Shown piece by piece: positions 4,172 through 57,218 of a stretch of 58,339 nt of DNA. The stretch is from an uncultured Eubacteriales bacterium (GTDB taxonomy: Bacteria > Bacillota > Clostridia > TANB77 > CAG-508), in assembly GCA_949288095.1 (NCBI GenBank), contig CASEIX010000024.1:1-58339 (forward strand). The letters run 5' to 3'. A model generated the notes under the pieces. That model did not search any database. It was not told the origin of the DNA and was given only the letters and a program-made list of their open reading frames with translations. A program made the translations under genes and the position numbers. How positions within the stretch are numbered: position 1 is the stretch's first letter; each line of letters opens with the position of its first letter.

Positions 4172-4601
4172 AAGTAAAAGATGATACAATAAAATATTCT
4201 AATAAATAATTTATAATTGGTATTGGTGGGGATTTTGGATACAAAAAAGTATCTAAAAATGTTGACAATATCATATTTTTGAATGATAATACATCTAGAA
4301 ATAAACAAAGTAACAAAGAATAAAAATATGAAAATATAAAAAATAAAATTATCATAAAATTAGGTGATCATAGCCAAGATATGTTTTTATAATCTGAATT
4401 TTGATGAGAGTAGCTGATACTCTCATTTATGCTAATTTGTAAAAAACACTACACAAAATAAGAAAAGTGTGATAAAATACTTGTGGTGTTGTTTGAGAAA
4501 AGGAAAAAATAAACAACAAAATAATTTATTCACTGAATAGTTTAATAATAAATAGCCAAAAAGTGGTTTAAATACTATAAAATTAAAAAGGAGGAATTAA
4601 A

Positions 4602-5420: not shown

Positions 5421-7394
5421 ATGGGACAAAAGAAAAGTAAAAGCTTGTTAATAACAGTTATTGTTTTATTAATTATTATTCTACTTTTAGTAGGTGTTAT
5501 AGCATATTTATATTTTTTCACAGATATGTTTAAAAGTAATAAACAGTTATTCTTCAAATATACTTCACAGATTGTACAAAGTGAAAATGGATTTATAGAT
5601 AATCAGTTAATGCAATATTTCCAAAAAAAGAATAGTACAAGTTATGAAAATAATGGAGAAATAACATTTGATGTATCTATTCCCAATATGGAAGATGACT
5701 TAGAATTGGCGAATAATCTTAATATTACTTTCTCAGGAAAAGAAGATCCGAATAACTCAAAATCAGAAAAAGAAATTAGTTTGAACTATTCAGATAGTGT
5801 CAATTTTCCATTAACATATAGAAAAACCAATAATATAACAGGAATTCAAACACAATATATTGGAAGCAGTTTTGTAGCTGTTAGAAATGATGAAGAAATT
5901 TCAGGATTAGAAGATATCAATAATTTATTAAAATTACAAAATATAGAGTTTTCTAATGAAGAAATACAAAGTTTGAAAACAAGCTATTTTGATAATATAT
6001 TAAATACATTAGATGATAGTAAATTCTCTACACTAACAGAAGGAAATTTAACAGGATATAGATTAACATTAACAAGCGAAGAATTTAAAAATACATTGGT
6101 TCAAATCTTAAATGCTTTAAAAACAGATACCAATACAACACATAAATTAAATGAAATATTACAAGGTATAGGAATTGATACACAATTAAATGAAGATTCT
6201 ATAGATGATGTTATAGAAAGTATTAATGATTGGAAATTAAATGATAATGTTGAAATGACTGTATATGCTACAGGAGGAAATCTTACTAGAGTAGATGTAG
6301 AAAGTACAGGAACTACATTAGAAATGAATAAAGAAGGAAATGGACAAGATATCACATACACAATAACATTAAATTCTACAGAACAAGATATAAATGCTGT
6401 ATTTACAGCAAAATATGCTGGTTTAGCTTCTGATAGTGTAACGGAAACATATGAGCTAACATTAGAAGGAAAGTATGAAGAAACTAATGTGGTAGAAAAA
6501 TCAGACAATACACAATATACATTAGATATTTCAAGTGAGAGAGAAGCAATTGAGTCATTAATAACAACTGTTCAGGCAAATAAAATTGCAGTAGGAGAAG
6601 ATAGTACACAAATCAGTGATACAGATGTAGAAGAAGAATTATCATCAGGAGAAAATGAAATCTATGCAGATATGCGTTTAGAAAGAGAAACTGATACAAC
6701 ATTTCATATTACATTTGTTAGTACGGGAGATAGATTTGTCATAGATAATACAGGAGAAATTGTTGAAGAACCAGAAGAAACAACTACAAACGAAAATTCA
6801 AACAATACTTCAAATAGTAGTTCAAACAGTACTTCCGAAACAACCATCAGCCAAAATAAATATAGTGTAACAAATAATGCACAATTTAAAGATGGAGTGG
6901 AAATAGAAGACTTAACAGAAGAAAATGCTGTTATTCTAAATGATAAAAGTAATGAATATGTTAGTAATTTAATGAATGCGATACAAGAAAGAATGGTAGA
7001 AGTTAATCAAGTACAAATGGAAGAATTAGGTGTATCTGAAGATGAGAATCCAATTCAATATCTAATACCAGCATTTTTAGGGGCAAGTCAAACAAATGCG
7101 CAAATTGATGAACAAGCTGTAAATGCATTTAATGCAAAATTTGAATTATATCAAAGTACAAACACAAAGGGCGCAACAGTCAAAGGATTATTAACAACCA
7201 TTCAAAATAATAATGAAACAGAAGGAAATGATAAAATAGAAGAAATCAATATGGATGGGGAAGAATATGAAGTAAATGAGCAAAATATTACCTTATTAAA
7301 AAGTAGTATTAATGTAGATGATGCATACAGAGTAGAATTTGAAAAAGATATTAATACAGGACTCATTTATAGAGCAGTTATTAATAAACGTTAG
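5421..7394 (+). CDS. membrane-anchored hypothetical protein (657 aa)
   Basis: N-terminal TM helix (LLITVIVLLIIILLLVGVIAYLYFF) and a long polar extracytoplasmic region. The last two codons and the TAG stop lie inside the repeat element starting at 7389. Confidence 0.7.
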   Translation: MGQKKSKSLLITVIVLLIIILLLVGVIAYLYFFTDMFKSNKQLFFKYTSQIVQSENGFIDNQLMQYFQKKNSTSYENNGEITFDVSIPNMEDDLELANNLNITFSGKEDPNNSKSEKEISLNYSDSVNFPLTYRKTNNITGIQTQYIGSSFVAVRNDEEISGLEDINNLLKLQNIEFSNEEIQSLKTSYFDNILNTLDDSKFSTLTEGNLTGYRLTLTSEEFKNTLVQILNALKTDTNTTHKLNEILQGIGIDTQLNEDSIDDVIESINDWKLNDNVEMTVYATGGNLTRVDVESTGTTLEMNKEGNGQDITYTITLNSTEQDINAVFTAKYAGLASDSVTETYELTLEGKYEETNVVEKSDNTQYTLDISSEREAIESLITTVQANKIAVGEDSTQISDTDVEEELSSGENEIYADMRLERETDTTFHITFVSTGDRFVIDNTGEIVEEPEETTTNENSNNTSNSSSNSTSETTISQNKYSVTNNAQFKDGVEIEDLTEENAVILNDKSNEYVSNLMNAIQERMVEVNQVQMEELGVSEDENPIQYLIPAFLGASQTNAQIDEQAVNAFNAKFELYQSTNTKGATVKGLLTTIQNNNETEGNDKIEEINMDGEEYEVNEQNITLLKSSINVDDAYRVEFEKDINTGLIYRAVINKR

Positions 7395-7733
7395 GGATGT
7401 GCCAAAGAGGACGTGCCAAAATGGCACCAAAAGGGAGAGACCTTAGCATTATTCACCAAAGGGACCTGTGGTTATATAAAGTCACTCACAATTTTGTATA
7501 AGCTAAATTTTCATAGAATTCTAAAATAAAAAAATGTATTCATGCACTCAGACCCTCTCGTAAACGAGAGTACCGTGCAATTCATACATTTTTTTATTTA
7601 AGAATTTCTACATTCAAATTTAGATACGCAAAATCGATTCGTTTTTTTATATAACCACAGGTCCCTTTGGTGAATAATGCTAAGGTCTCTCCCTTTTGGT
7701 ACCATTTTGGAACGATTTGACACGTCCCTAACG
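7389..7733. repeat. 345-bp nested fold-back element, copy A (outer REP-like ends, 38-nt perfect middle arms, 165-nt imperfect hairpin core)
   Basis: The left end CGTTAGGGATGTGCC... is mirrored by ...CACGTCCCTAACG at the right. Arms 7443..7480 and 7646..7683 are perfectly complementary. The core is centred on CTCTCG-TAAA-CGAGAG. A second copy is at 55113..55460. Confidence 0.9.
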
Positions 7734-7823
7734 TTTCAGTCATAAATTCAATATATTAGAATATATATATTATTGAGGTAGAAGTAAAACAAATTCTAAA
7801 ATTATTGAAAAAAGGAGTGAAAA

Positions 7824-11254: not shown

Positions 11255-11911
11255 ATGATAGAGTTTTTAAGTAGTTGGGCAAAAAGTTTAGGATTGGCCA
11301 TTATTGTCATATCCATTTTAGAAATGTTATTACCCAATAATAAAACAAAAAAATATGTCAGAATGGTATTTGGTATATATATTATTTTTAATATCATATC
11401 ACCATTTGTTAAAAATAAAGATATATTAGATGTTAGTTCTTATGATTTAAATGAATATATCGGTAATTATACAACCAATCAAACAAATGAAGAACAAAGC
11501 ACTGTGAATAGTCAAATAGAAGAAATCTATATAGAAGAATTAGAAAAAGATATCACTAAAAAAATAGAGAATTTAGGGTATCAAGTCACGACTTGTAATG
11601 TGTATGCAACATTATCAAATGAAAATGAAGAAAATTATATAGAAGAAATTGTTTTAACAGTTGAAAAAAATGAAAATCAAGAAAATAATCAACAAGGAAA
11701 TGAAACAGGACAAACAGAAACAATTGAAGATAAGTTAGTAAATGAAATTCAAAAGATAAAACCAGTAAACACTACAGTCGGAAAAATTAATAAAACAAAT
11801 GAGGAACAAGATGAGAGTAAACAAAATATAAATAATAGTGATATTCAAAAGATAAAAAAGTTCTTAAAGGAAGAATATGGAGTTGAGGAAACATGTTTAA
11901 AGATAAATTAA
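11255..11911 (+). CDS. spoIIIAF: stage III sporulation protein AF
   Basis: N-terminus WAKSLGLAIIVISILEMLLPNNKTKKYVRMVFGIYII matches the SpoIIIAF pattern. Confidence 0.7.
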   Translation: MIEFLSSWAKSLGLAIIVISILEMLLPNNKTKKYVRMVFGIYIIFNIISPFVKNKDILDVSSYDLNEYIGNYTTNQTNEEQSTVNSQIEEIYIEELEKDITKKIENLGYQVTTCNVYATLSNENEENYIEEIVLTVEKNENQENNQQGNETGQTETIEDKLVNEIQKIKPVNTTVGKINKTNEEQDESKQNINNSDIQKIKKFLKEEYGVEETCLKIN

Positions 11912-12516
11912 AAGGGTTGATCAATCCAGAAGATAGAAATAAAAACAACAAAAAGAAAATAGAAAATTTAGTATTTTTTGTTGTCATACTAATTGTCACA
12001 ATTGTCATCATAAATATCATATGGAATGGAGATAAAAATAGTAGTAATGAAAAGGAATTACAAAATAATACTTCAAAACAATTAGCCAATAGCAATACAT
12101 CTTCATTAGAAGCATCAAGTAATACCAGTAACCAGTTGGAAATAAAATTAGAAGAAATCTTAGCAAAAATCCAAGGAGTAGGAGAAGTAAATGTGTTCAT
12201 AAATTACTCAGAATCAAGTGAAATTGTACCAATGTATAATGAAAGTACGCAAACCAGCAATACAGAAGAAACAGACACATCAGGAGGAACAAGAACCATA
12301 GAAGAAACCGATTCACAAAAAGAAATCATATATGAAGAAAGTGATGGAGAAAAAACCGTCATTACACAGAAAGTAGTAGAACCACAAATAGAAGGAGCCA
12401 TTATTACAGCAAAAGGAGCAGGAAATGCAGAAGTAAAAACAAGCATCATCCAAGCAGTAGAAGCAGTAACAGGACTGCCAACACATAAAATACAAGTCTT
12501 TGAAATGGAACATTAG
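11893..12516 (+). CDS. spoIIIAG: stage III sporulation protein AG
   Basis: N-terminal TM helix and a C-terminal ring-building-like block VEPQIEGAIITAKGAGNAEVKTSIIQAVEAVTGLPTHKIQVF. It overlaps spoIIIAF by 19 nt. The last codons and TAG lie in the repeat at 12506. Confidence 0.75.
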   Translation: MFKDKLKGLINPEDRNKNNKKKIENLVFFVVILIVTIVIINIIWNGDKNSSNEKELQNNTSKQLANSNTSSLEASSNTSNQLEIKLEEILAKIQGVGEVNVFINYSESSEIVPMYNESTQTSNTEETDTSGGTRTIEETDSQKEIIYEESDGEKTVITQKVVEPQIEGAIITAKGAGNAEVKTSIIQAVEAVTGLPTHKIQVFEMEH

Positions 12517-12594
12517 GGACGTGCCAAATCGTTCCATTTTGAAACGATTTAACCTGTCCCCAATGTTTCAAAATGAAACAAAAGGGACAGACCT
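12506..12594 (+). repeat. REP-like palindromic unit, long form
   Basis: ATGGAACATTAGGGACGTGCCAAATCGTTCCATTTTGAAACGATTTAACCTGTCCCCAATGTTTCAAAATGAAACAAAAGGGACAGACCT. Same family as 27903, 29082, 32308 and 34987. Confidence 0.9.
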
Positions 12595-12626: not shown

Positions 12627-13304
12627 ATGAAAATAATGAAAGGATTATTAAAGAAAAATCAAGTGATTATTTATGTGATTGCTTTAATGTTAGTAACTGC
12701 TGGATATTTGAATTATACTACCAATACAGCAGAACAAGTATCAGCACAGACTGCTATGGAAATGGAAGCAAATGATGATATGCAAATGGCTGATATTGGA
12801 GATGCTACATTGGTGAATAGTGAAGCAGTTAGTGAAAATGAAGTAGAAGAAAACTCCACAGAAAATACAACGAATACAAGTGTCGATGTAAATGTAACAC
12901 AAAATACCAATACAACAGAAAGTAATACAACGGCGCAAGCAAGTGCAACAGTCACAACAGATGAATATTTTACAAAATCAAAATTAGAAAGAGATACTAT
13001 GTATTCACAAATGATAGAAAGTTATGAAAATGTATTAAATAGTAGTAATAGCTTAGAAACACAAAAACAAAGTGCAACAGAGGAAATAAAAAAAATTAAT
13101 GATACGAAAAATAGTATCATGATATGTGAAAATTTGATTAGTACAAAAGGATTTACCAATAATATTATTTTTGTAAATGGAGATAGTATTAGTGTCATTA
13201 TTGGAGCAGAACAATTACAACAAGAAGAAGTGGCGCAAATACAAAATATTATTTCGAGAGAATTAAATGCAGAAATTGAAAATATACATATATCAACAAA
13301 ATAA
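12627..13304 (+). CDS. spoIIIAH: stage III sporulation protein AH
   Basis: Last gene of the spoIIIA cluster, with an N-terminal TM helix, a polar linker and a C-terminal domain. SD GAAAGGAAGG is upstream. Confidence 0.65.
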   Translation: MKIMKGLLKKNQVIIYVIALMLVTAGYLNYTTNTAEQVSAQTAMEMEANDDMQMADIGDATLVNSEAVSENEVEENSTENTTNTSVDVNVTQNTNTTESNTTAQASATVTTDEYFTKSKLERDTMYSQMIESYENVLNSSNSLETQKQSATEEIKKINDTKNSIMICENLISTKGFTNNIIFVNGDSISVIIGAEQLQQEEVAQIQNIISRELNAEIENIHISTK

Positions 13305-24293: not shown

Positions 24294-24309
24294 AATGAAC
24301 ATAATATAG

Positions 24310-24566
24310 AAAAACGATAGTCAGGACACGATAAATGGCATAATATCTTAAAGAGAGCCAAAGGTAGCTGAGAATTTGGTAAGTAAACTCTATTTATTAT
24401 CCCCTAACTGTTACTAAACTGAAATAAAAGTAAGTATAGTCGTAAATCTGCGTTAAAGATAAATGAGAGAACTAATTAAAAGAGAATTAATTAGTTAAAA
24501 TAGGTGGTACCGCGGAAAGTAAAGCTATTTCGTCCTAAGTTAGGATGTTAAATAGCTTTTTTTGTT
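24310..24566 (+). promoter_or_regulatory. T-box leader (tRNA-sensing riboswitch) with terminator
   Basis: AGAGAG and GCTGAGA stem I elements, and the conserved T-box AAAATAGGTGGTACCGCG at about 24497..24514. The terminator AAAGCTATTT...AAATAGCTTTTTTT spans 24521..24566. The 5' boundary is approximate. Confidence 0.8.
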
Positions 24567-27700: not shown

Positions 27701-27914
27701 ACAAAACATGAGAAAAGACAGTGGATTTGAAGTATTAGACAGAATCAATCTATATGTAGCAGGAAATGAAAAAGTAGAAGCTGTTATCAAAAAATACGAA
27801 GAAACCATCAAACATGACACATTAGCAGACAACATCTTCTATAACAAAGAAGGAAGAGATTATACTGATACAAATATTAATGGAGAGAATTTAAAGATTG
27901 ATGTGGAACGTTAG
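24771..27914 (+). CDS. ileS: isoleucine--tRNA ligase (long, about 1,050-aa form)
   Basis: HIGH motif [17 protein letters not shown] motif KMSKSKGN, and the editing and Zn-finger regions. The last codons GTG GAA CGT TAG lie in the repeat at 27903. Confidence 0.97.
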
Positions 27915-27958
27915 GGACGTGTCAAATCGTTTCAAAATGGAACGAAAGGGACAGACCT
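27903..27958 (+). repeat. REP-like palindromic unit, short form
   Basis: GTGGAACGTTAGGGACGTGTCAAATCGTTTCAAAATGGAACGAAAGGGACAGACCT. Confidence 0.9.
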
Positions 27959-28063
27959 AAAAAACGATTTGGTTATATTGGAAATGACACAAGAATGAAT
28001 AAAAATGAAAAGGATATATCTAAAAATACAAACATTTGAGTAGGTATGTCCTTTTTATTTTAG

Positions 28064-28092
28064 TTGACAAATGGAAAAAAATGTAATATTAT
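28064..28092 (+). promoter_or_regulatory. sigma-A-type promoter upstream of the RAYT gene
   Basis: TTGACA, a 17-nt spacer, then TATTAT. Confidence 0.5.
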
Positions 28093-28163
28093 ATCAAATA
28101 GTTATATAATCAAATATAATAATTAAAGTTTTATCAAAATAATTTTATTTCAAAGGAGAATTT

Positions 28164-28919
28164 ATGTCTAGAATTGCGAGAAATCAAATGGAAACCACTT
28201 TTTTTCATAATATGACACAGGGAATAAACAAAGAATATATTTTTGAAGAAAATAGATGTAAAAAGAAATATATAGAACTATTACAAAAAGAAGTAAATGA
28301 ATTTAATATAAATTTGATTGCTTTTACTATCATGAATAACCATGCACATATATTATTGCATACAGAAAATATAAGTAACATGAGTAAATTTATGAAAACA
28401 ATTAATGAAAAATTTGCAATGTATTACAATTATATAAATAAAAGAGTAGGAATTGTTTTTAGAAATCGATATAAAAGCCAACCAATATTAAGTGAAAAGC
28501 AACTATTAAATTGTATCAGATATATTTTTAATAATCCTGTAAGAGCAAAAATTGTTTTAAATCCAGAAAAATATATTTATTCTAATTTTAAAGATTTTCA
28601 AGTTAGTCAAATATCAGAAATTTCGTTAGATAGAATTTATAAAAATATTAATAATTCGATTGATTTTCCAAATGTAAAAAATCAAAAAATAATAGCAGAA
28701 GCAGAATTTTTAGATACGTTTGAGGATACAGAAATATTTATTAAAGAATTAATAAAAAATTATGAAAAAGGAAAAGACTTAATGATAGGTAAAAATACAG
28801 AGGAAATGAAAAAGATTGTACAATATGTAAAAGAAAATACAAATATATCGCATAAGTTTTTGGCAGATATATTACATGTATCTAAAACAACAATTAGTCG
28901 ATATATAAAAGGTGAATGA
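28164..28919 (+). CDS. REP-associated tyrosine transposase (RAYT) / IS200-like Y1 HUH transposase with C-terminal HTH-like tail
   Basis: HUH motif NNHAHILLH, GIVFRNRYKSQPI block, catalytic Tyr block CIRYIFNNPVRAKIV and C-terminal LADILHVSKTTISRYIKGE. Confidence 0.8.
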   Translation: MSRIARNQMETTFFHNMTQGINKEYIFEENRCKKKYIELLQKEVNEFNINLIAFTIMNNHAHILLHTENISNMSKFMKTINEKFAMYYNYINKRVGIVFRNRYKSQPILSEKQLLNCIRYIFNNPVRAKIVLNPEKYIYSNFKDFQVSQISEISLDRIYKNINNSIDFPNVKNQKIIAEAEFLDTFEDTEIFIKELIKNYEKGKDLMIGKNTEEMKKIVQYVKENTNISHKFLADILHVSKTTISRYIKGE

Positions 28920-29081
28920 TAAAATTACAACATTATAATTTTTTATTAAACTTTATAATGTTGTAGTAAAAACAAAACAAGTGATACTTTTATGACAAAA
29001 AACTCTTAATTTGTCATAAAAAGTATTGTAAAAGAATTAATTAAATATTATAATACATAAGAATAAAAGATAAAAAGAACG

Positions 29082-29136
29082 AGGTCTGTCCCTTTCGTTT
29101 CATTTTGAAACGATTTGGCACGTCCCTAACGTTCCA
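29082..29136 (-). repeat. REP-like palindromic unit, short form (inverted)
   Basis: AGGTCTGTCCCTTTCGTTTCATTTTGAAACGATTTGGCACGTCCCTAACGTTCCA. It ends directly against the SD AAGGAGG of the next gene. Confidence 0.9.
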
Positions 29137-32307: not shown

Positions 32308-32391
32308 AGGTCTGTCCCTTTCGTTTCATTTTGGAACATTGGGGACGGGTTAAATCGTTTCAAAACGGAACGATTTGGCACGTCCCCAATG
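32308..32391 (-). repeat. REP-like palindromic unit, long form, variant terminus CATTGGGGACG (no TAG)
   Basis: AGGTCTGTCCCTTTCGTTTCATTTTGGAACATTGGGGACGGGTTAAATCGTTTCAAAACGGAACGATTTGGCACGTCCCCAATG. Confidence 0.9.
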
Positions 32392-32485
32392 TAACACTGA
32401 AATAAAAATACAATACGTACGAAAATAATTCGTTTATACACAGTTGAAAATTTGATAAGATAAACAAAAAAATAAAGGTGGTAAT

Positions 32486-32812: not shown

Positions 32813-32994
32813 AAGATATTTAGAATGAGAGCAGAAACTCATTCTTTTTTTCTTATATTTTTTGTTTTATAAAGATTTGCCTATATTATATAGACTATTT
32901 CTATATAATTGTTTTTATAAACTGGTTTTGACACAAAGATAGTTTTATTATATACTGATATCGCAATAATATAAAAATAGAGGAGTTGTCATAT

Positions 32995-34998
32995 ATGAAA
33001 GAAAATGAGACATATGAACAATGTGTAATAAAGGAAAAAAATGAAGGACAATTTAGTAGAGAAAAATACTTAAAGTTATTAAGTAAAGAATTTAAAAATA
33101 CAACAGAAGTGGCAGAAGAAATTATTAATTTAAAGGCAATACTAAATTTACCAAAGGGAACAGAAGTATTTTTAAGTGATATTCATGGAGAATATGCACC
33201 ATTTACCCATATTTTAAATAATGAAGCAGGAATTATAAAAAGTAAAATTGAAGAAACATTCGAAAATCGAATTACAGAAAAAGAACGAAATACATTAGCA
33301 ACTTTGATATATTATCCAAAAGAAAAACTAAAATTCATTAAACAAGAAACAGAAAATCTAGAAGAATGGTATGCAATTACTTTATACAGATTAGTAGAAG
33401 TAGCAAGAAAAGTAAGTTCAAAATATACAAGATCAAAAGTTAGAAAAGCGATTCATAGTGGATTTGAATATATTATAGATGAATTACTACACTCACAAGT
33501 AGATAGTGAAAAAGATAAAGAAAATTATTACAAACAAATTATTAAGACAATTATTGAGCTAGAACAAGCAGATAGCTTTATCATAGCTATATCAGACTTA
33601 ATTAAACAAATGGCGATAGACCATTTACATGTAATAGGAGACATCTTTGATAGAGGAAGATATCCAGATTTAGTATTAGATAGACTAATGAGTTTTCATA
33701 GCTTAGACATTCAGTGGGGAAATCACGATATATTATGGATGGGAGCAGGATGTGGAAATAAAGCTAATATTGCAACTGTTGTTAGAATATGTGCAAGATA
33801 TAATAATATAGGAATATTGGAAGATTCTTATGGAATAAATATGAGGCCATTATCCACATTTGCACAAAAAATATATAAAAATGATGATTGTGCAAACTTT
33901 ATGCCAAAGGTATTTGATTTTAATAAATATGACAATAGTGATAGAAATAGTATAGCCAAAATACAAAAAGCAATAACGATTATTCAATTTAAAATTGAAG
34001 GACAATTAATCAAAAAACACCCAGAATATCATTTAGACAATCGATTATTACTAGACAAAATGAATATAGAAAAAGGAACCGTAACGATAGAGGGAAAAGA
34101 ATATGAATTAAATGACAAGAATTTTCCAACAATTGATAAAAATGATCCATATGCTTTAACTTCTGAAGAAAATGAAATCATGGAAAGACTTGCAGAATCT
34201 TTTGTGCATAGTCCTAGTCTACAAAAACATTTGAAATATTTATACACAAAAGGAGAAATATATACTATATTTAATAATAATCTTTTATTCCATGGTTGTA
34301 TTCCAGTAGATGAAAATGGAAATTTAAAAGAAGTAGAATTTATGGGAAAAAGATTAAAAGGAAAAGCCTATTTTGATGAAATCAATGAAGTGGTAAATAA
34401 AGTATTTGCAACAAGACAGCCAGAATTAGTAGATATCATGTGGTTTTTATGGATTTCACCAGAATCACCATTTTTCGGAAAAGAAAAAATGGCAACATTT
34501 GAAAGCTATTTTGTAAAAGATAAAACAATGAGCAAAGAATCCAAAAGTCCCTATTATCAATATTCTGAAAATGAAGAATTTTGTGTAAAAATATTAAGAG
34601 AATTTGGATTAGAAGGAGAAGATTCTCATATCTTAAATGGACATGTTCCAGTAAAAGCAAAAGATGGAGAAAGTCCAATAAAAGCAAATGGAAAACTATT
34701 AGTGATTGATGGCGGATTTGCAAAAAGCTTTAGAGAAAAAACAGGAAATGCAGGATATATCTTAACATATAACTCAAATGGATTATTATTAAGTCAAAAT
34801 AAACCATTTGAATCTGTAGAAAAAGCAATTGTAGAAGAAACAGATATTATCAGTGAAATCATTGTCAAGAAAACAGATGTTCTTAGAAAAAGAGTAGCAG
34901 ATACAGACATAGGAGCAAAACTAAAAGGAGAAATTGCAGACTTACAAGAATTAATGAAAGCATATAAAAATGGAGAAATAAAAGAAGTGGAACGTTAG
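32995..34998 (+). CDS. fbp: fructose-1,6-bisphosphatase, class 3
   Basis: IINLKAILNLPKGTEVFLSDIHGEY, HVIGDIFDRG, WGNHD and GHVPV metallophosphoesterase motifs, and a length of about 665 aa. I prefer the ATG at 32995 over the track TTG at 32986. The last codons GTG GAA CGT TAG lie in the repeat at 34987. Confidence 0.9.
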   Translation: MKENETYEQCVIKEKNEGQFSREKYLKLLSKEFKNTTEVAEEIINLKAILNLPKGTEVFLSDIHGEYAPFTHILNNEAGIIKSKIEETFENRITEKERNTLATLIYYPKEKLKFIKQETENLEEWYAITLYRLVEVARKVSSKYTRSKVRKAIHSGFEYIIDELLHSQVDSEKDKENYYKQIIKTIIELEQADSFIIAISDLIKQMAIDHLHVIGDIFDRGRYPDLVLDRLMSFHSLDIQWGNHDILWMGAGCGNKANIATVVRICARYNNIGILEDSYGINMRPLSTFAQKIYKNDDCANFMPKVFDFNKYDNSDRNSIAKIQKAITIIQFKIEGQLIKKHPEYHLDNRLLLDKMNIEKGTVTIEGKEYELNDKNFPTIDKNDPYALTSEENEIMERLAESFVHSPSLQKHLKYLYTKGEIYTIFNNNLLFHGCIPVDENGNLKEVEFMGKRLKGKAYFDEINEVVNKVFATRQPELVDIMWFLWISPESPFFGKEKMATFESYFVKDKTMSKESKSPYYQYSENEEFCVKILREFGLEGEDSHILNGHVPVKAKDGESPIKANGKLLVIDGGFAKSFREKTGNAGYILTYNSNGLLLSQNKPFESVEKAIVEETDIISEIIVKKTDVLRKRVADTDIGAKLKGEIADLQELMKAYKNGEIKEVER

Positions 34999-35076
34999 GG
35001 ACGTGCCAAATCGTTCCGTTTTGAAACGATTTAACCCGTCCCCAATGTTCCCAAATGAAACAAAAGGGACAGACCT
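34987..35076 (+). repeat. REP-like palindromic unit, long form
   Basis: GTGGAACGTTAGGGACGTGCCAAATCGTTCCGTTTTGAAACGATTTAACCCGTCCCCAATGTTCCCAAATGAAACAAAAGGGACAGACCT. Confidence 0.9.
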
Positions 35077-39713: not shown

Positions 39714-39745
39714 ACAGACTACAAAATAGTAGTCTGTTTTGTTTT
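39714..39745 (+). terminator. rho-independent terminator of spoVS
   Basis: ACAGACTAC-AAAATA-GTAGTCTGTTTTGTTTT. Confidence 0.8.
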
Positions 39746-39858
39746 GTCCAATTGGGGACGTTTCTTTTTGGACATTTTATTTATATTTGTTACTTATAAT
39801 TTCTTTTTTAGACAACACATCAAAAAAATGTCCAAAAAGAAACGTCCCCAATTGGACA
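39746..39858. repeat. 113-bp MITE-like element with perfect 30-bp terminal inverted repeats
   Basis: TGTCCAATTGGGGACGTTTCTTTTTGGACA at 39746..39775 is matched by its exact reverse complement at 39829..39858. It shares ATTGGGGACG with the REP family. Confidence 0.85.
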
Positions 39859-41331: not shown

Positions 41332-41419
41332 GCAGATGTGGCGGAACTGGTAGACGCACAGGACTTAAAATCCTGCGGTTGAATAAACCGTGCCGGTTCG
41401 ATTCCGGCCATCTGCACCA
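41332..41419 (+). tRNA. tRNA-Leu (anticodon UAA), type II with long variable arm, encoded CCA
   Basis: Acceptor GCAGATG pairs with CATCTGC. The anticodon stem CAGGA/TCCTG carries the loop CT-TAA-AA. The T arm is CCGGTTCGATTCCGG, followed by a discriminator A and CCA. Confidence 0.9.
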
Positions 41420-46000: not shown

Positions 46001-49000
46001 GAAATAGGATATTTAATGAATGGAAAAGATAAAAATAATTTTAATGCAATATCTAATTTTGAAAATTCTGATTCACTTCATATAAAGTTATTATTTGCTA
46101 TAGATAAATTAAATGAAGGTGTGCATATAGATGGAATTAATGGTGAAATAATGCTTAGAAAAATTAACAATGGAAGTACTATTTTATATTTACAACAATT
46201 AGGAAGAGCAATATTTGCAATAGACCCAGACCATCCATTATCAGAAGATGAGATACCTATAGTATATGATATATATAATAATTACTTAGTGCAGAACTTG
46301 AATAGAACCATAAATGAAACAACTCCAAAATCAGATTTACAAAAATTACAAGAAATTATGGAATGGATGGATAAGCATGGCTATATTCCAGATATAAATA
46401 GTGAAAATACAATGGAAGCACGAAAAGCTATTACATTAAAGAAAATTCAAACAAAATATAAAAAATATATAGATGGAATAGATAATCCGAGATTAAGTGA
46501 ATCAGACATATATGAAATTGAACAAGTTATGGAATTAGCCAACGCAATAGATTTATTTAATATGGAAATTGGAGATAGAATAATACCACCAGGAGAAAAA
46601 GAGCTAGATGAGGTTCAACTATTTAAAGTAACAGCTGTTCAAAAGAAATTTATGGAACTATATAAAGATGCAAATAAAGTTATAGCTAATGTTGAAAGAC
46701 ATAAGAATAATCCAATAGCTAGATTAAATGATGTCATGATTATTTTGGAGACATTAAATAGCAAAGATGTATTTATAGATAATAATTTAATTCAATATAA
46801 TACTACATTAAAAGAACTTATAGAAAGATGCCCAGAAGAAATTCAAGCCAGTTTGTACGAGGAACTTTCTGACTTTGACGAAAAATATCCTATTGGCAAA
46901 GGTTATAATTTTGCTAAAGCGTCATTTAGAGATCATTATTTGTGGAAATATTATGCTGATTCAGATGTGAGAAAATTATATGCCTGTGGTATATTTGAAG
47001 ATATAGACAAAGATTATATTTTTAGGGAAGTAGAAGATTTAAGTACTAGAGATAGAATTACTAGGAAAGTATTAGATGAAGATTTTATAATTTGCGGAAA
47101 TGCGAATTTAAAGGAAATAAATGTAAAAACAGGTACTTTATATAATGAACAAGGACAGACATATAAGCAAATATGTAGCATGAGAGAAAGTAGGGAAGAG
47201 AAACAATTAGATAAACTTGTTCATGTTATTCAAGCTGTTTATAGTCGTTTTTCTTTTAGTTTTGCTAATGAAAATATAGATGAAATTCCAGAAGGTAAAA
47301 TTAGAGAAATAGTATTTAATACAACAGGAGAAGGAATAGGTATGCCGTTTTCTGATGTTCCACAAATGTACTTCTTGAAACAAGAAATATTAAAAGCTAG
47401 AGAGTATATAGAAAGTAATTATGAATCATATAATCAGGAAGATATTATTAAGTTTAAAAAATATGGTATATTACCAATAAATATAGATGAGAATGGACTG
47501 GATAAAGAAACAAAATTACCAAGAGAAGAGTTTGGAACTAATATAGAACAATATAAACAAAAAAGAGCTCAAGAAGAACAAGCTGCAAGAATAAAGGAAA
47601 GAGTGGAAAAAACAATAAGTGTATTAGAAGATATTTCATCTATTTTAGGGTATAAATATAGCTTTGCTAATGAAAATATAGATGAGCTTCCTAATAAAAA
47701 TCTTTCTGGATTTTTAGATAAATTATTAGATAGGTTAAAATTACCAGAAAGAAATAAATACCTACCTACTAAGTATTCGCTTAGAGAAGAAGTTTTATTT
47801 GCGAGAGAGCATATAGAAGAAATTTTTCCAACCATAAAAGAAGATAAATCGATGCTAATTAAATTTAAAGTATTAGGTGTATTACCATTAAAATTTGATT
47901 CAGAAGGTAATGAAATAGAAACTGGTTTGCCTAGGGATTATTTTAAAACAGGTTTGATGAATTTATATAAACAAAAAGAAAAAGAGGAAACACAAAGAAA
48001 ACAGCAAGAGGCAGAAGCAAAAAGAGATGAACGTATTAGAATGCAAAAAGAAAGAGAACAAAGAGAAAAAGAGTGGCAAGAGAGAAAAGAAAGAGAAAGA
48101 AAAAGGAAGGAAAAAGAAAAAGAAAGAAAAAAGAGAGAAAAAGAAGAACGATATAATGTTGGTGATGATGGATATAATTCAAAAGGGGAATATTTATATA
48201 AGGGAAAATTATACCCATATAATCCATTAACTGGAAAAAAAGCAGATGGCACATATGCAGTAGAAGCTAGAGATGAAAGAGGTTTTAATCCAGATAGAAC
48301 ATATAAAGATACAGGAGACTATTATGATGAAAATGGTCTAGATTATGATTATAAAGATAGAGAAGGATTTGATACAATTTATCATTTTGACAAAGACGGA
48401 TATTATTACGAAAAAAACGAAAACGGAGAATATGTAAACACAGGTTTAAAATATAATCCTATGGGATTCGGGGCAGATAAATTACATGTAGTAACTAAGA
48501 CTGCCGTAGATGTAAGAGGCTTTACAATAGATGGTAATTGTATAAGAAATGAAAATAAAAAATATGATAGAAAAGGATTTAAACAAGATGGAACACATAA
48601 GGATACTGGAGAAATCTATTATAATGGCTATAATGCATTTGGAGTTGATAAAAATGGAAAAAATGAAAAAGGAAAAACGCCAAGAGAAATAATTTTTGCA
48701 AAAGACTTTATAATTAACGGAGTGACAAAAGGTAATTTAAAAGCAACTCTAAAAAAATATGGTATAACATCTGAATATTCATTAAACTTAAATTTATATA
48801 CTGCGGCGGAAATGTGGCCTCAAATAAAATTGTTGATTCGTAGACAAATATTTGAATTCCAAACAAAGATAAAAAAAAGAGAAGATAAAATTGCACAATT
48901 AGAGAAGGAAAAAAATAATAATACCGAGTTAATAAAGAAACTGAAAAAAGATAATGAGCGATTAAAAAAGAATATTTCATATTTGAATCCAATGGAAGAG

Positions 49001-49012
49001 ATAGATAAATAA
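43028..49012 (+). CDS. giant (1,994 aa) multidomain protein with central SF2 DExH helicase core
   Basis: SD GGAG is upstream. Motif I is VVLPTGAGKSF (about nt 44991), motif II LIVLDELHRSG (about 45401), motif III GITATP and motif VI LQQLGRAIF (about 46193). The N-terminal ~620 aa and C-terminal ~900 aa are unassigned. Confidence 0.85.
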   Translation: MEEKIFDIDKFNIIQDEDNYYLFRALNLDDQREISEGLTTENGVIQRVITNKQRYPENDKYADREEISLQEVWDHTKSVNFYKGTNCISLSSNANVSIDYGSKYGHKYSMIKVPKKQSNQIYNAGQYMLVELNRVLDEAIRRIPQDSEVIKLIDEIEGEHNYNEIKTVIGECFKTANSNGKYTSQANIRARQSMIERFNKRQAFSEEQQLEYNKVIGKLTVLESYGMLPKEIFDTINIPSLIRTIGSEFSNREFVHYGEISSEELMPISKINIDIFAWLQVAKEQGIDPQIIDKIERIFIEYTNQGFELVEKDGKLFYSNGKEKIDLDIGDDSILVTENSLDSSSDFSIDEMFERTNGTIGYSKSKNAAEFVYSLSIAQRKSIEIANILKIILNDDRLNDILEEIGNKSIAINDDIITRKNGRGIQISESVNIDMNRGENKLFSDDEQRKIYEKIKSLSVEQLDTIISKNGKDLEQEIYIENLDHSEIDENITREERLNRYYAETILDTLDFSQIYRNAIKDKSLNEQEREQILNQLEKADCKRLVKAFIKAGIAESEVAGYIINILASNGYQGYTFEELSKLDNLEDIISKNIKNTNLKGHVYPSVMEELRGIRDNDNRVGDTLINLRDYQQETVDNVDEIYAAGKRFAGVVLPTGAGKSFIAMAEMLKNQNGNILYIAPQKEILNQVQRHILKYIAGVEVLTTKEINELKEEQNITNIKKLKLPEGKILPKQVNEYVKKVFPHLKMFCYQGLASQDEKDLSDEQLKERNEEERELREILKNADANLIVLDELHRSGAKTWKGVVEKLIKSNDKANILGITATPIRDVDHVDMMKEIAKMTGTYTDEELAQKKHLAYEMYLTDAIQRGIVVEPKIVSFDFMLRDTEEYKEILEMIEKEQDEDKKKKLEEIKSQIDELINGDTEISEYIKNNISSKENEEIGKIIKSTIRKKDGRYIVFLPQNTTKLPTEEYIKQEIEKVKEYFKDIDADPEIGYLMNGKDKNNFNAISNFENSDSLHIKLLFAIDKLNEGVHIDGINGEIMLRKINNGSTILYLQQLGRAIFAIDPDHPLSEDEIPIVYDIYNNYLVQNLNRTINETTPKSDLQKLQEIMEWMDKHGYIPDINSENTMEARKAITLKKIQTKYKKYIDGIDNPRLSESDIYEIEQVMELANAIDLFNMEIGDRIIPPGEKELDEVQLFKVTAVQKKFMELYKDANKVIANVERHKNNPIARLNDVMIILETLNSKDVFIDNNLIQYNTTLKELIERCPEEIQASLYEELSDFDEKYPIGKGYNFAKASFRDHYLWKYYADSDVRKLYACGIFEDIDKDYIFREVEDLSTRDRITRKVLDEDFIICGNANLKEINVKTGTLYNEQGQTYKQICSMRESREEKQLDKLVHVIQAVYSRFSFSFANENIDEIPEGKIREIVFNTTGEGIGMPFSDVPQMYFLKQEILKAREYIESNYESYNQEDIIKFKKYGILPINIDENGLDKETKLPREEFGTNIEQYKQKRAQEEQAARIKERVEKTISVLEDISSILGYKYSFANENIDELPNKNLSGFLDKLLDRLKLPERNKYLPTKYSLREEVLFAREHIEEIFPTIKEDKSMLIKFKVLGVLPLKFDSEGNEIETGLPRDYFKTGLMNLYKQKEKEETQRKQQEAEAKRDERIRMQKEREQREKEWQERKERERKRKEKEKERKKREKEERYNVGDDGYNSKGEYLYKGKLYPYNPLTGKKADGTYAVEARDERGFNPDRTYKDTGDYYDENGLDYDYKDREGFDTIYHFDKDGYYYEKNENGEYVNTGLKYNPMGFGADKLHVVTKTAVDVRGFTIDGNCIRNENKKYDRKGFKQDGTHKDTGEIYYNGYNAFGVDKNGKNEKGKTPREIIFAKDFIINGVTKGNLKATLKKYGITSEYSLNLNLYTAAEMWPQIKLLIRRQIFEFQTKIKKREDKIAQLEKEKNNNTELIKKLKKDNERLKKNISYLNPMEEIDK

Positions 49013-53800: not shown

Positions 53801-54585
53801 AATTTGAAAAAATCAATACCATTTTGAATTATACATATACACATCAATTAGCAACAACAATTCCAACAATGACATCTGTTACAAAAATTAAGCAAATGAA
53901 AATGCAAGCAAATAGTAATGTCAATACAGATACAGTAGGAGAAAAAGAAAATACATATGTAATTAGCAAACCAAAAAACATGGAAAGTGAAATGGAGTTA
54001 GAAAATCAAGTTGAAAATCAATTGACTTTCAATAAACCAAATTTCATGAGAGAAGATAAAGATGATGTTGTCACTCCTGCACAAAAAGGAACTCTCGTTC
54101 ATATGTGTATGCAAAGATTAGATGAAACAAAAGAATATACATTAGAAATGATACAAGCTTTAATAGAAGATTTAGTAAAAAGAGAAATCATCACAGAGAA
54201 AGAAGCAAAAAGTATTAATCCATATAAGGTATTAGAATTTACAAAATCAACCATTTGGAAAGCTTTGAAATCTGCAAAAAAGGTATATAAAGAAAGACCA
54301 TTTTTTATCAATATACCAGCAAAAGAAATTTATGAAGAAGAAGTAGAAGAGGAGATTTTAGTACAAGGAATTATTGATTTGTATTATATTGGTCAAAATG
54401 ATGAAGTGGTTTTAGTAGATTATAAAACAGACTATGTGGAAAAAGGAAAAGAAAGCGAATTAGTAGAAAAATATATTTCACAACTAGAATTATATAAAAA
54501 AGCATTAGAAGAAAGTTTACAAAGAAAAGTAGATAAAACATATATATATTCTGTATATCTAGGAAAAGAAATTGAAATTGCTTGA
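50854..54585 (+). CDS. addA: ATP-dependent helicase/nuclease subunit A (AddA)
   Basis: UvrD-like N-terminus WTKEQSQAIHEKGTNILVAAAAGSGKTAVLVERI and the C-terminal RecB-type nuclease motif GIIDLYY...VLVDYKTD. Confidence 0.9.
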   Translation: MADVKWTKEQSQAIHEKGTNILVAAAAGSGKTAVLVERIINKIIQEKIDIDRLLVVTFTNAAAAEMRERVLEAIYQKLDETPENENLQRQITLLNKASICTIDSFCLDVVRNHFYELENISPNFRIADTTEIELLKQEVLEDIFEEKYENQEEDFAQLINTYTSYRDDTPLKELILKIYTYIQSNPFPNQWLDEKIEMFHIQDFEQDFSQNPWGEILLKEVEEELIDDINTLKEQAENLEKNPDLEKYTKTIFDDIDKLGMLKVNLNSWDKAYAIYSNLAFATWPRQKIDSAIKDQAKLVRDDIKKKVTKKLNKIFIYNSEEANQDIADMYPILLKLKQLIFEFGEEFSKRKRNKNMVDFNDIEHLALQILIKEDDGKVEPTEVAKSYKEKFVEIAIDEYQDSNMVQEYILTAISKGNNIFMVGDVKQSIYKFRQAMPDLFLSKYKTYQLKENKKDEDDLKIQLFKNFRSRANVLDFTNLIFQDIMSENLGEINYTEEEYLNLGASYEETSQELETEIDVIDLKEKEDLAPEQEARATEELQEDNEEEIQEERVEDIQVEARFVANKIKSLVESHFQVFDRKINGFRDIQYKDIVILLRSTKVNAPIFEEEMINLGMPVFSESSQEYLDSIEIQTIMSLLKIIDNPIQDIPLVTVLRSHIGNFTDDELVEIRLSDKYDNFYTAMQKARINVSHELKEKIDTFFQNLEKWRKEKEYLALDEFIWKLYSDPHYYTYVGLMPNGDIRQANLKMLFERAKQYETASFKGLYNFIQFIEKLHVGSNDLGAAKLIGENDDVIRIMSIHKSKGLEFPVVFLSATGKQFNLMDLNQNILLHQELGIGVKYIDYERQVQYDTLTKEAIRNKILTETLSEEMRILYVALTRAKEKLYITGLKRDYEKEMENMQKQVSRYHKVNDKINYILVKKYKKYLDWILLVYLYEKENKDQLLTLNAWNKQELLKSFEKPKEEMVDIKEQLENTTIQKDEFEKINTILNYTYTHQLATTIPTMTSVTKIKQMKMQANSNVNTDTVGEKENTYVISKPKNMESEMELENQVENQLTFNKPNFMREDKDDVVTPAQKGTLVHMCMQRLDETKEYTLEMIQALIEDLVKREIITEKEAKSINPYKVLEFTKSTIWKALKSAKKVYKERPFFINIPAKEIYEEEVEEEILVQGIIDLYYIGQNDEVVLVDYKTDYVEKGKESELVEKYISQLELYKKALEESLQRKVDKTYIYSVYLGKEIEIA

Positions 54586-54642
54586 AAATTATGTAGACTT
54601 TTGGTATAATAAGGATAGATTGTAAAGAAATGGGGAAGAAAA

Positions 54643-55113
54643 ATGAGTAGAGTAAAAACATTATTGATGTATGCCTTATGGATTGTACTGTTTATTATAT
54701 TTTCTGAGTTTCTAATTAATGTTGGTTTGAATTCAACTTATAAGCCAATAGAAAGAAGAGATAATGTGTCACAAGTCAATGTATATCAAGCAGAGGCAAC
54801 ACTTGTCAATGGAAGAATAAGGGGATTAATAACTAATTCAGAAACAAATAATATAAGTAATAAATATTTAGAATTTGATTTTTATTCTGAAAGAGATGTA
54901 TTTTTAGGGAAAAAAATCATTGATATTAATGAATTAGAAGCTAATGAAATACAAAACTTTGAGATTTTATTTAAATTGGAAGATGTGGACTATTATACAG
55001 TTAGTGTATTAGATGAAAGACCTGAAGGTGAGGAAATAGAAATTCTTCCTGAAGGTTGGACAACTGCAGAAATAATAGTAGCAACTGCCTTTACATTGCT
55101 AATTTTCTGGTAG
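54643..55113 (+). CDS. membrane protein, unknown function (TM helix at each end)
   Basis: N-terminal TM helix LLMYALWIVLFIIFSEFLI and C-terminal TM helix IIVATAFTLLIFW. The stop TAG abuts the fold-back element. Confidence 0.6.
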   Translation: MSRVKTLLMYALWIVLFIIFSEFLINVGLNSTYKPIERRDNVSQVNVYQAEATLVNGRIRGLITNSETNNISNKYLEFDFYSERDVFLGKKIIDINELEANEIQNFEILFKLEDVDYYTVSVLDERPEGEEIEILPEGWTTAEIIVATAFTLLIFW

Positions 55114-55460
55114 TGGAACGTTAGGGACGTGTCAAATCGTTTCAAAATGGGTCAAAAGGGACAGACCTTAACCTGCCCACCAAGGAAACTTGTGTTTATA
55201 TAAAGTCATTCACAATTTTGTATAAGCTAAATTTTCATAGAATTCTAAAAGAAAAAGATGTATTCATGCACTCAGACCCTCTCGTAACGAGAGTACCGTG
55301 CAATTCGTACATCTTTTTCTTTAAGAATCTCTATATTCAAATTTAGATACGCAAAATTGATTCATTCTTTTATATAAACACAAGTTCCCTTGGTGGGCAG
55401 GTTAAGGTCTGTCCCTTTTGACCCATTTTGAAACGATTTGATACGTCCCTAACGTTCCAC
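55113..55460. repeat. ~348-bp nested fold-back element, copy B
   Basis: Same layered architecture and nearly identical core as 7389..7733, with a different but internally complementary middle layer. It fills the whole gap between two convergent genes. Confidence 0.9.
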
Positions 55461-57218
55461 TCCTGCCCAAAGAGTTTTATTATTTTTATAAATCACCATA
55501 CCAGGTTTTGCACCATTTGGTTTTTTTACATATTTTACTTCACAAAAGTCCACAGGTACGTTAGAAGAATTTCTAGCTTTACTATGGTAAGCTGCAATTT
55601 CTGCACATTTTAATAAAATATCATCTTTAGGAATAGGAGAACCATTTAGGACTAAAATACAATGGCTTCCATGAATATCTTTGGCATGAAACCATAAATC
55701 TGTTTTTTTTGCATATTTTAAAGTTAAATAGTCATTTTCCATATTGTTTCGACCAACTAAAAGCGTATAATCTTCAATTTTATATTTGATTGGATTAAAG
55801 TGTACATATTTATTTTTGGTTAATTTTGATTTTTTTACTTTCGGATTTTTCTTTTCTTTATATTTTTCCGTTTTTTCTTTAAAAACAGAGCTTTCAGAAA
55901 TTTCTTCAAAAACATTACTAATATCTTCTATGGTAGAACAAGCTTCTAATTCATAAATAACACTTTCTATATAATCTAAATCTTTCATTGTCTCTTCTTT
56001 TTGTTCTCCAACAATCAGCAAAGCATTTTTTAATTTATTATATTTTTTAAAAAATAGTTTGGCATTATGACTAGGAGAATAACGTTTATCCAAAGGAATC
56101 GTAATCATTTTATTATTGTCATAATAATTTTCTAAAGATACTGTATCGGTATTTTCATTTTTAATTCTATACAAATTTGCTGTGATAAGTTCACCATATA
56201 ATTTATAAGTATCCATCTGGTCACATTCTTTTAGTTTTTCATTAATGTTATATAGTCTTTTGTTATATTTTTTTAGTGTATCTAAAATCAATTTTGAAAC
56301 ACTATTTCTATATACTTTAAATTCTTCAGATGTTTCTTTATGAAAATAATAATCATCAATGAAAAAGTTAATAGAAAAAGAATCTGAAGATGAATCCTTT
56401 TTGCATAAAATATAATCTTTTACATTTCCCTTATCATCTTTTATAGTATCAAAGCCTAACTGCAAAGAATCTGTTGCATCAATCACATGTTTCATATTTG
56501 CATAAATGGTTTCTAAATTTTTATCGTCTATTTTAGATGAAGTATCTAAATGTAGTGTTTCAACAATATGACTAATAAAACTTTTACTAATTCCATTAAA
56601 AATATTAGAAATGTGTGAAGGTAGATCAGACATGTGCATCTTTTCAAAATCAAAATCAAAATCTAAATTTAATTTTAATTTGAAATCTTGAAAATTAGTA
56701 ACTTCTAAAAAATTCAACTTATTTGTAGAAGGATATACATATTTTACATGTGGGACAATTTCTCTGGTCAATTCATTATCAGAAGAAATATGTCGTAAAC
56801 TATCGATAATCACATTATTTTCATCCACTAAAATGACATTACAATGTCTTCCCATTAATTCTATAATTAATTTTTTGGTAATAATATCATCTATATCATC
56901 AAAACCCTCAAACTCAATGGTAATGACTCTTTCTAAATTGACAGAAATAATATTTTTGATACGTAATCCAATTAAATATTTTCTTAATAACATACAAAAA
57001 TTTAATGCATTTTTAGGATTCAGTTTTGTATGTGTTGTTAAATGTAATCGATAATTTTGTGCATTTGTACAAATGTTTAATGCATAATTAACACCATTTA
57101 AATAAAAGCCTAAAACAATATCATTTTTATTTGGTTCATATACTTTATCAATTCTAGCACCAATTAGTTGTTGTAATTCAGAGGTAATTGCTTTTGTCAC
57201 AATTCCATCAAATGCCAT
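55449..57218 (-). CDS. rqcH: ribosome quality-control factor RqcH (NFACT / FbpA family)
   Basis: N-terminus MAFDGIVTKAITSELQQLIGARIDKVYEP and the NFACT-R block DLWFHAKDIHGSHCIL. The last codons GTG GAA CGT TAG lie in the repeat. Confidence 0.9.
   Translation of the reverse strand: MAFDGIVTKAITSELQQLIGARIDKVYEPNKNDIVLGFYLNGVNYALNICTNAQNYRLHLTTHTKLNPKNALNFCMLLRKYLIGLRIKNIISVNLERVITIEFEGFDDIDDIITKKLIIELMGRHCNVILVDENNVIIDSLRHISSDNELTREIVPHVKYVYPSTNKLNFLEVTNFQDFKLKLNLDFDFDFEKMHMSDLPSHISNIFNGISKSFISHIVETLHLDTSSKIDDKNLETIYANMKHVIDATDSLQLGFDTIKDDKGNVKDYILCKKDSSSDSFSINFFIDDYYFHKETSEEFKVYRNSVSKLILDTLKKYNKRLYNINEKLKECDQMDTYKLYGELITANLYRIKNENTDTVSLENYYDNNKMITIPLDKRYSPSHNAKLFFKKYNKLKNALLIVGEQKEETMKDLDYIESVIYELEACSTIEDISNVFEEISESSVFKEKTEKYKEKKNPKVKKSKLTKNKYVHFNPIKYKIEDYTLLVGRNNMENDYLTLKYAKKTDLWFHAKDIHGSHCILVLNGSPIPKDDILLKCAEIAAYHSKARNSSNVPVDFCEVKYVKKPNGAKPGMVIYKNNKTLWAGVER

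Follow-up and report, generated by a model that had tools for sequence, protein, structure and literature searches.

A fold-back element with the ends of a RAYT-type transposase unit at the convergent rqcH junction of an uncultured Clostridia bacterium

The window analysed here is a 58,339-nt stretch of DNA from an uncultured Eubacteriales bacterium (contig CASEIX010000024.1), in which the entire space between two convergent genes, one encoding a membrane protein and the other RqcH, is taken up by a 346-nt fold-back element, designated copy B (55114..55459, + strand). The ends of copy B are shared with the sequences that flank a RAYT-type transposase gene of the window, and on this basis we regard B as a probable non-autonomous member of a REP/REPIN-like family tied to that RAYT, of the type of the TIRtrons, which are RAYT-like genes with long terminal inverted repeat (TIR) families (Di Nocera et al. 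2013, PMC3733652). The comparison covered the 58-kb window together with 8-kb loci from relatives, which are given L numbers.

Copy B and its relation to the RAYT unit

The palindrome around copy B spans 55112-55461 and is imperfect: its arms of 128 nt each (55112-55239 and 55334-55461) are 86% complementary, and an inner 21-nt pair (55242-55262 and 55308-55328) encloses a 45-nt centre. The edges of the element itself were set by family-wide comparison. Conservation among 57 non-redundant family ends sets in abruptly at the T of TGGAAC, so the element proper is 55114-55459 and the extra palindromic bases outside it (AG/CT) are flank. The 20 bases preceding these ends hold no motif, G at position -1 being the only enriched base (35%), a composition on which insertion at a specific sequence, TTGAT or TA for instance, was rejected. 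No target-site duplication or direct repeats were detected at copy B or at other complete family copies. The same structure is present in three independent assemblies (L001, L003 and L078), and copy B is thus not an assembly artefact. From its outside inwards, B consists of a 55-nt terminal module (55114..55168, + strand; a 31-nt outer unit, TGGAACGTTAGGGACGTGTCAAATCGTTTCA, and a AAAGGGACAGACC box), a linker of ~30 nt and a core (55198-55375), followed by a second linker and an inverted terminal module (55405..55459, - strand), the outer 11 nt of which encode the ..(V)ER* end of RqcH; both linkers are short palindromes. The 55-nt end sequence, TGGAACGTTAGGGACGTGyCAAATCGTTTCAAAATGGnnCnAAAGGGACAGACCT, occurs three times in the window against an expectation of zero. 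RNA fold prediction for 55105-55470 gave -224 kcal/mol, compared with -72 +/- 5 kcal/mol for shuffled sequences (z = -29.7), with ~145 bp of predicted pairing on either strand. A strand-specific RNA function was considered from the G-U pairs and dropped, as counts of 4 and 5 on the two strands amount to no asymmetry.

Not a single repeat-free base separates the two genes, which confirms the statement in an earlier note on this DNA that no spare intergenic sequence exists here, the element occupying the whole gap. The membrane-protein gene (54643..55113, + strand, 156 aa) ends in a TAG (55111..55113, + strand) that abuts the element with a gap of 0 nt and is not derived from it; the note had begun the element at the G of this codon, one base outside the family edge. 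The TAG inside the left module (55122-55124) is out of frame with the membrane gene and is unused. On the other side, rqcH (55449..57218, - strand; domains NFACT_N, E = 2e-113, and NFACT-R_1) terminates in ..KTLWAGVER*, with GTG GAA CGT TAG at 55460-55449. The element had been credited with all four of these codons; it contributes TG GAA CGT TAG, the last 11 nt of the gene including the stop codon (55449..55451, - strand), and the first G of GTG belongs to the flank. The preceding WAG is encoded by CTCCTGCCCA (TGGGCAGGAG on the rqcH strand; 55460..55469, - strand), a probable remnant of an older unit, whose TGGGC is common to L078 and to a solo unit in L083.

The modules that match the ends of B (91-96%) lie at 27904..27958 (+ strand) and 29082..29136 (- strand), where they bracket a single open reading frame (ORF) 27 kb upstream of B (28164..28919, + strand). 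The left one supplies the stop of ileS (..KIDVER*), and the right one is 96% complementary to the left one and 91% to the left end of B. The bracketed gene encodes a RAYT-type HUH/Y1 transposase of 251 aa with a C-terminal helix-turn-helix (HTH), presumably the mobilizing enzyme, and it is the only gene found bracketed by these ends. The protein scores above the cut-off of the Pfam model Y1_Tnp, its best NCBIfam match is REP_Tyr_transpos (4.7e-17, compared with 6.9e-4 for the IS200 model), and the HUH histidines and the catalytic tyrosine of the YIxxNP motif are invariant among 20 homologues. A search of the PDB with the single sequence returned nothing; with a profile of the homologues, the sole significant match was 4ER8, the E. 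coli TnpAREP bound to a REP hairpin. The AlphaFold (AF2) model of the protein (pLDDT 80) likewise matched 4er8_A best (E 2e-5, TM 0.74), with the TnpA proteins of IS608 and ISDra2 in a second tier (TM 0.56-0.67).

In six or more species-level genomes the RAYT gene comes directly after ileS, its protein being 98-71% identical, and across these genomes the inner half of the terminal modules changes in step with the protein. A single-locus, vertically inherited pattern such as that at ileS has been described for RAYTs, and the occurrence of Group 1 RAYTs in Clostridia is already on record (PMC5581495). In the window the unit (27904-29136) is wedged between ileS and a gene for an ABC-transporter ATPase, the ribosome-binding site of which begins at the first base past the right end of the unit (..GTTCCA, then AAGGAGG). 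A T-box leader upstream of ileS and a tRNA gene (24308-24540 and 41332-41416) are the only gathering-level Rfam matches of the window. Most RAYT homologues (P0122-P0240) were located on contigs of ~1-3 kb, which suggests that metagenome assemblies break at the flanking repeats; such breaks will hide the RAYT system from surveys based on metagenome-assembled genomes (MAGs).

The 58 kb hold seven family members: the RAYT unit, fold-back copies A and B, three 89-nt doublets and one fold-back of a sister family. Copy A (7384..7738, + strand), with its core in the same orientation as that of B, provides the stop of a DUF6583 gene (5421..7394). The terminal-module doublets are REPIN-like hairpins, in which the outer unit pairs with its inverted copy (DNA fold z -3.5 to -4.4). 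One (12506..12594, + strand) ends the gene 11893..12516 of the spoIIIA operon, another (34988..35076, + strand) ends a class-3 FBPase gene (32986..34998), and the third, a TTGGGG variant in the opposite orientation (32308..32396, - strand), is without TAG. The sister-family member is a 114-nt fold-back (39745..39858) with the TIR TGTCCAATTGGGGACGTTTC, located between spoVS and a dUTPase gene. In a scan of one genome per species the 18-mer end was found at 73 loci, nearly all in uncultured Clostridia or Eubacteriales MAGs, with dozens of exact matches per related MAG. A second contig representing the empty site of copy A was sought via the downstream neighbour, and the only one retrieved (L085) was also element-bearing. 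In L105, from a more distant genus in which FBPase is 78% identical, the native TAA stop of the FBPase gene is directly followed (about 2560-2620) by a palindrome that is different but shares the GGGGACG core (GAAATGGGGACGGTTC..GAACCGTCCCCATTTC), and palindromes of the GGGGACG type may be widespread at gene ends of the clade.

Stop-codon donation and the history of the rqcH junction

Donation of a stop codon is a general property of the family. Of the 47 genes of the window, 13 stop at a TAG, and 5 of these TAGs come from the element: those of the ileS, FBPase (..KEVER*), spoIIIAG-like (..FEMEH*), DUF6583 (..INKR*) and rqcH genes. Across all loci, 21 of 37 independent clusters of upstream genes end at the element TAG, 8 nt inside the unit, and 8 more end 0-3 nt ahead of it. 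ORFs entering the unit do so in frame A (xTG GAA CGT TAG) 21-22 times, in frame C three times and in frame B at most once (0-1), a bias with p ~1e-7 under equal frames (binomial estimate). Since frame A appends only three residues, compared with 6 to about 30 for frames B and C, selection against long tails would be a sufficient cause of the bias, which probably reflects selection rather than targeting. The proposal that the same TAG-bearing end can serve genes arriving from either side holds for the family: in L012 (2355-2743) and L036 (6490-6872) one fold-back gives an in-frame TAG to both of two convergent genes, of 788 and 229 aa (tails ..VVEMEH* and ..KEEVEH*). It does not hold for copy B itself, where the TAG of only one end is in use and the membrane gene retains its own stop.

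The elements at ileS, FBPase and spoIIIAG keep their positions from one species to another. FBPase proteins with native tails end in ..GEIKENWK*, ..GEIKETI* and similar, and those with an element end in ..GEIKE(V/I/M)E(R/H)*. In L104 the gene has become 12 nt shorter without loss of frame, giving ..GEIK* with the element TAG still in use. When the L104 locus is compared with the window (34986-34998), the 12-nt step is the same as that seen in L078, where, relative to 55112-55461, the fold-back (4244-4575) has lost the outer TGGAACG(T) on both arms (12 and 11 nt), and the TAG frame is kept each time. C-terminal tails such as ..VER*, ..MER* and ..VEH* in IleRS, FBPase and RqcH are repeat-derived and should not be taken for conserved protein features. 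The doublet at 12506-12594 sits between the spoIIIAG-like gene and spoIIIAH (12627..13304), a placement kept in seven species-level genomes; this conserved position inside the spoIIIA operon makes it unlikely that the 89-nt form is a strong terminator.

For RqcH, comparison of the C-terminus with orthologues had been named beforehand as a check, and its outcome agrees with a tail supplied by the element. Orthologues end in ..HVTPKN*, ..HVTPKIQN*, ..YVEPLKS* and the like rather than in VER*. Among the 120 closest, most end in ..KNNKTLHVTPKN* or a near variant, and the ..WAGVER* of the window is in the minority. At repeat-free rqcH loci the terminal nucleotides also differ from the end derived from B. 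These element-free junctions carry the native tail ..HVTPKK* followed by a spacer of 47 nt with a scan-positive bidirectional terminator (L101) or of 114 nt with an A-run, a 13-bp stem and a T-run (L102 and L103); in each, the A-tract/hairpin/T-tract architecture is the same as that of the core centre of the element.

Related genomes show the same junction in other states. L078 has the fold-back seen in B, cut back by 11-12 nt at each terminus (..KTLWA*). In L082 the core is reversed, the junction is different and rqcH reads into the element in frame B (..YV followed by NVGDVSNRSKIEQKGQT*); L080 has a fold-back of the sister TIR family and keeps the native rqcH tail; and L083 holds only a solo 29-nt unit, in frame within the rqcH tail. 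The junction has thus, as judged from these sequences, been occupied independently at least three times (L082, L080 and L083), and this repeated occupation is the best evidence obtained here that the family is, or was, mobile. At all occupied junctions the native spacer is lost rather than split, and in the lineage of the window the last six native rqcH codons have been replaced by WAG and the VER* from B. The arrangement in L083 had suggested an ancestral convergent overlap of rqcH and the membrane gene; this was rejected because L101, L102 and L103 have spacers of 47-114 nt and L083 is derived. Among these loci the one junction occurs without an element, with a lone unit and with fold-backs of three kinds. 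This makes an unusually clean data set, which bears on why REP-type elements sit at stop codons and between convergent genes.

The combined observations suggest a model in which the Y1 enzyme acts in trans on family elements, moving or copying them in single-stranded form and leaving no target duplication. At the rqcH junction such an element would have replaced a native spacer of 50-110 nt, together with its bidirectional terminator-like hairpin and the last six rqcH codons, after which the in-frame TAG, 8 nt inside the outer unit, would have come to end RqcH (..WAGVER*). The element would now form the shared 3' region of both convergent transcripts, where its central A-tract, hairpin and T-tract may stand in for the lost terminator and the long hairpin may shield the 3' ends from 3' exonucleases or attract RNase III.

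The conserved core and competing explanations

The centre of copy B is a 178-nt core (55198..55375, + strand) in which a left block (..TTTTGTATAAGCTAAATTTTC..) and a right block (..TTCAAATTTAGATACGCAAAAT..) enclose a central hairpin. Full copies of the core were found at least 23 times in related genomes and one metagenome. Both blocks hardly vary from species to species; they complement each other only in part, and this asymmetry has itself been conserved. The core centre (55247..55322, + strand) has the appearance of a bidirectional terminator, with an A-tract, a three-tier hairpin and a T-tract; the hairpin comprises 76 nt with predicted energies of -35 to -38 kcal/mol (z -6 to -9). Its sequence varies among core copies with the architecture retained, and 11 of the 18 predicted pairs show compensatory double changes. 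A function of the core, or of the whole element, as a terminator or stabilizer is therefore plausible from sequence. Rfam 15 gave no gathering-level match in the copy B region, and at E<=10 only sub-threshold plant MITE-derived miRNA hairpins were retrieved, a generic likeness of long hairpins. Sigma-70 promoters directed inward or outward from the core blocks were also considered and discarded, since a scan found none inside the element and the candidates picked by eye were mis-spaced. As a sequence module, this core with its covarying hairpin has not been described before and merits experimental attention.

The terminator-like centre raises the question of whether the element is now kept for the host, as a stop codon combined with a bidirectional terminator or 3' stabilizer, its mobility being secondary or extinct. 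The A-tract/hairpin/T-tract of element-free junctions is missing from the window and recurs in the element centre, the core blocks and covarying pairs point to constraint on structure, and the ileS, FBPase and spoIIIAG positions are retained across species. The contexts of core-bearing fold-backs (5 convergent, 8 tandem and 1 divergent among independent sites) also fit such a role, as does the orientation of the core, which is the same as that of the genes in all eight independent tandem contexts. However, the orientation bias is equally predicted by strand-specific single-strand transposition and covariation is also expected of a DNA hairpin required for mobility, whereas the conserved internal loops and invariant flanking blocks are foreign to terminators. 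The two strands are equivalent in folding and in G-U count, one doublet is placed within the spoIIIA operon, at a point where termination would do harm, and a terminator scan sees nothing canonical in B. On balance, we consider domestication unlikely as the main explanation. A broader form of the idea is that vertically inherited, portable gene-end cassettes, with an in-frame TAG at the tip and, in the long form, an oriented core, have replaced the native stops and terminators of dozens of genes (ileS, FBPase, rqcH, spoIIIA and others) across a clade of gut Clostridia by targeting or swapping terminator hairpins rather than by random insertion with later selection; this would be a more far-reaching proposal, and we hold it to be rather improbable.

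The core could also be a separate small mobile element, moved by some other transposase, that enters the centres of palindromes already present (REPIN-like doublets or terminators), in which case copy B would be an invaded doublet that the RAYT may not move at all. This is argued for by the occurrence of the core inside at least three outer TIR families (the TGTCCAATTGGGGACGTTTC type brackets it at the rqcH junction in L080 and in the metagenome loci L094, L095 and L097), and within locus-specific palindromic arms of 17-72 nt that lack the GGGACG unit (L017, L020, L035, L088 and L090). Derivation of the core from subterminal sequence of the RAYT unit was rejected, as alignment scores were no better than those of shuffles, and insertion sequences that target REP palindromes have been mentioned in the literature (PMC2817692). 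Copies A and B nevertheless share ends, linker and core at two unrelated loci, which indicates that the whole composite has spread, and no autonomous element carrying the core blocks was found in any locus examined, nor any match to the core motif in viral contigs; a nested origin is accordingly rated as distinctly unlikely. Two further explanations are weaker. The convergent transcripts might form hairpins or duplexes that are cut by RNase III and so couple rqcH to the membrane gene, as ~145 bp can pair on either strand and both genes are transcribed into the element unless transcription stops at its very edge. Nothing about the element is specific to this gene pair, though, as the same family lies behind many unrelated genes and the junction of relatives holds different elements or none, and a regulatory double-stranded RNA device appears very improbable. 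The size of 346 bp, the TIRs and the AT-rich context would suit a classical MITE, a deletion derivative of an insertion sequence with a DDE transposase and unrelated to the RAYT; the lack of target-site duplications and of a conserved target, and the Y1/HUH identity of the sole gene bracketed by these ends, make this the least credible of the explanations, and we give it almost no weight.

Membership of B in a RAYT-linked family remains the preferred reading, and several observations weigh against it. The core bears no relation to what lies inside the RAYT unit and is found in other TIR families as well, so that the link of the composite to the RAYT runs through its ends only. The NCBIfam RAYT score of the 251-aa protein (62 bits) falls below the curated cut-off of 80, the lone 31-nt unit forms no stable hairpin and folds like shuffled sequence (z -0.5), and the classical GTAG tetranucleotide is absent, with GTTAG in its place. 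A simple terminator scan of 54400-55800, which includes B, returned no canonical intrinsic terminator. Simple insertion does not account for the loss of the whole native spacer, and frame selection leaves the closeness of the units to stop codons (0-3 nt, with no target motif) unexplained. Copies A and B are only 85% identical, and a filled and empty pair was not found among near-identical strains, transposition being inferred from sequence.

Some other features of the window lie apart from the elements. A gene for a DUF285/BspA-like leucine-rich-repeat surface protein (14131-16473) contains ~14 diverged 78-nt periodic repeats at 15304-16394, with a paralogous stretch at 22057-22340. An ORF of 1994 aa just upstream of the addA region (43028-49012) has a ResIII/DEAD helicase (residues 626-831) as its only recognizable domain.

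Comparison with known systems

The closest counterparts are the REP/BIME and REPIN-RAYT systems of E. coli (TnpAREP) and Pseudomonas (PMC3116915, PMC2817692, PMC5581495), which resemble the present family in having an HUH/Y1 gene between inverted repeat copies, further repeats dispersed as hairpin doublets at the 3' ends of genes, and no target duplication; TnpAREP is also the best structure and profile match of the enzyme. High copy number, extragenic location and placement mostly at 3' ends or between convergent genes were all found, as were a RAYT gene and an inverted flanking repeat with matching dispersed copies, the ends of B agreeing with it at 91-92% in this comparison. The 20-40-nt imperfect palindrome with a GTAG foot that defines a classical REP was not. 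The unit is not self-palindromic, an HTH is added at the C-terminus of the enzyme, the host belongs to a low-GC, spore-forming Clostridia lineage, and copy B is three times the length of a REPIN and has an unrelated conserved core. Given the non-palindromic lone unit and the GTTAG, the TIR-type variant (PMC3733652) fits better than the classical REP. Like the TIRtrons, the family has a RAYT-like gene within long TIRs that are dispersed as singles, dimers and clusters. REPs between convergent genes lie <20 bp from both ORFs in that study, and the ends of GTAG REPs often provide TAG stops (PMC3733652), as is seen here. The TIR motif of the TIRtrons is GGGGWSAS, to which the (T/G)GGGACG and AAAGGGACAGACC of the present family are a partial fit, and neither a stop-donation frequency such as 21 of 37, nor cross-species conservation, nor a composite with a conserved core is described there (PMC3733652).

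Similarity to the IS200/IS605 family and its non-autonomous, palindrome-associated derivatives (PATEs) extends to the HUH/Y1 fold of the IS608 and ISDra2 TnpA proteins, the lack of target duplication and a strand or orientation bias. The ends of those elements are distinct, non-identical subterminal hairpins with a fixed 4-5-nt target at the left end, whereas the ends seen here are inverted repeats with no target motif, and the gene is syntenic after ileS. Neither the target-site duplication nor the DDE parent insertion sequence of a DDE-type MITE was found. Correia elements of Neisseria and the ERIC/RIP-type BIMEs of enterobacteria are fold-backs of 100-150 bp and more that are co-transcribed with their neighbours. 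They change the 3' ends of genes, contain functional sites in their interior and give rise to RNA hairpins that influence mRNA processing and stability. Correia elements produce TA duplications and are not known to be linked to a RAYT that lies between the same ends. The present family is not known to be related to them in sequence. Within an incomplete collection of literature no description of this family or its core was found, Clostridia included.

Judged by its sequence, the system works like, and by most of the criteria tested belongs to, the REP/REPIN-RAYT kind, more exactly the TIR-type variant. REP elements are already known both to donate stops and to pack tightly between convergent genes (PMC3733652). 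The modest novelty lies in how far stop donation extends and how well it is conserved between species, in the replacement of native terminators and in the conserved structured core. The findings extend the well-characterized RAYT-type systems, which have mostly been studied in Proteobacteria, to spore-forming gut Clostridia.

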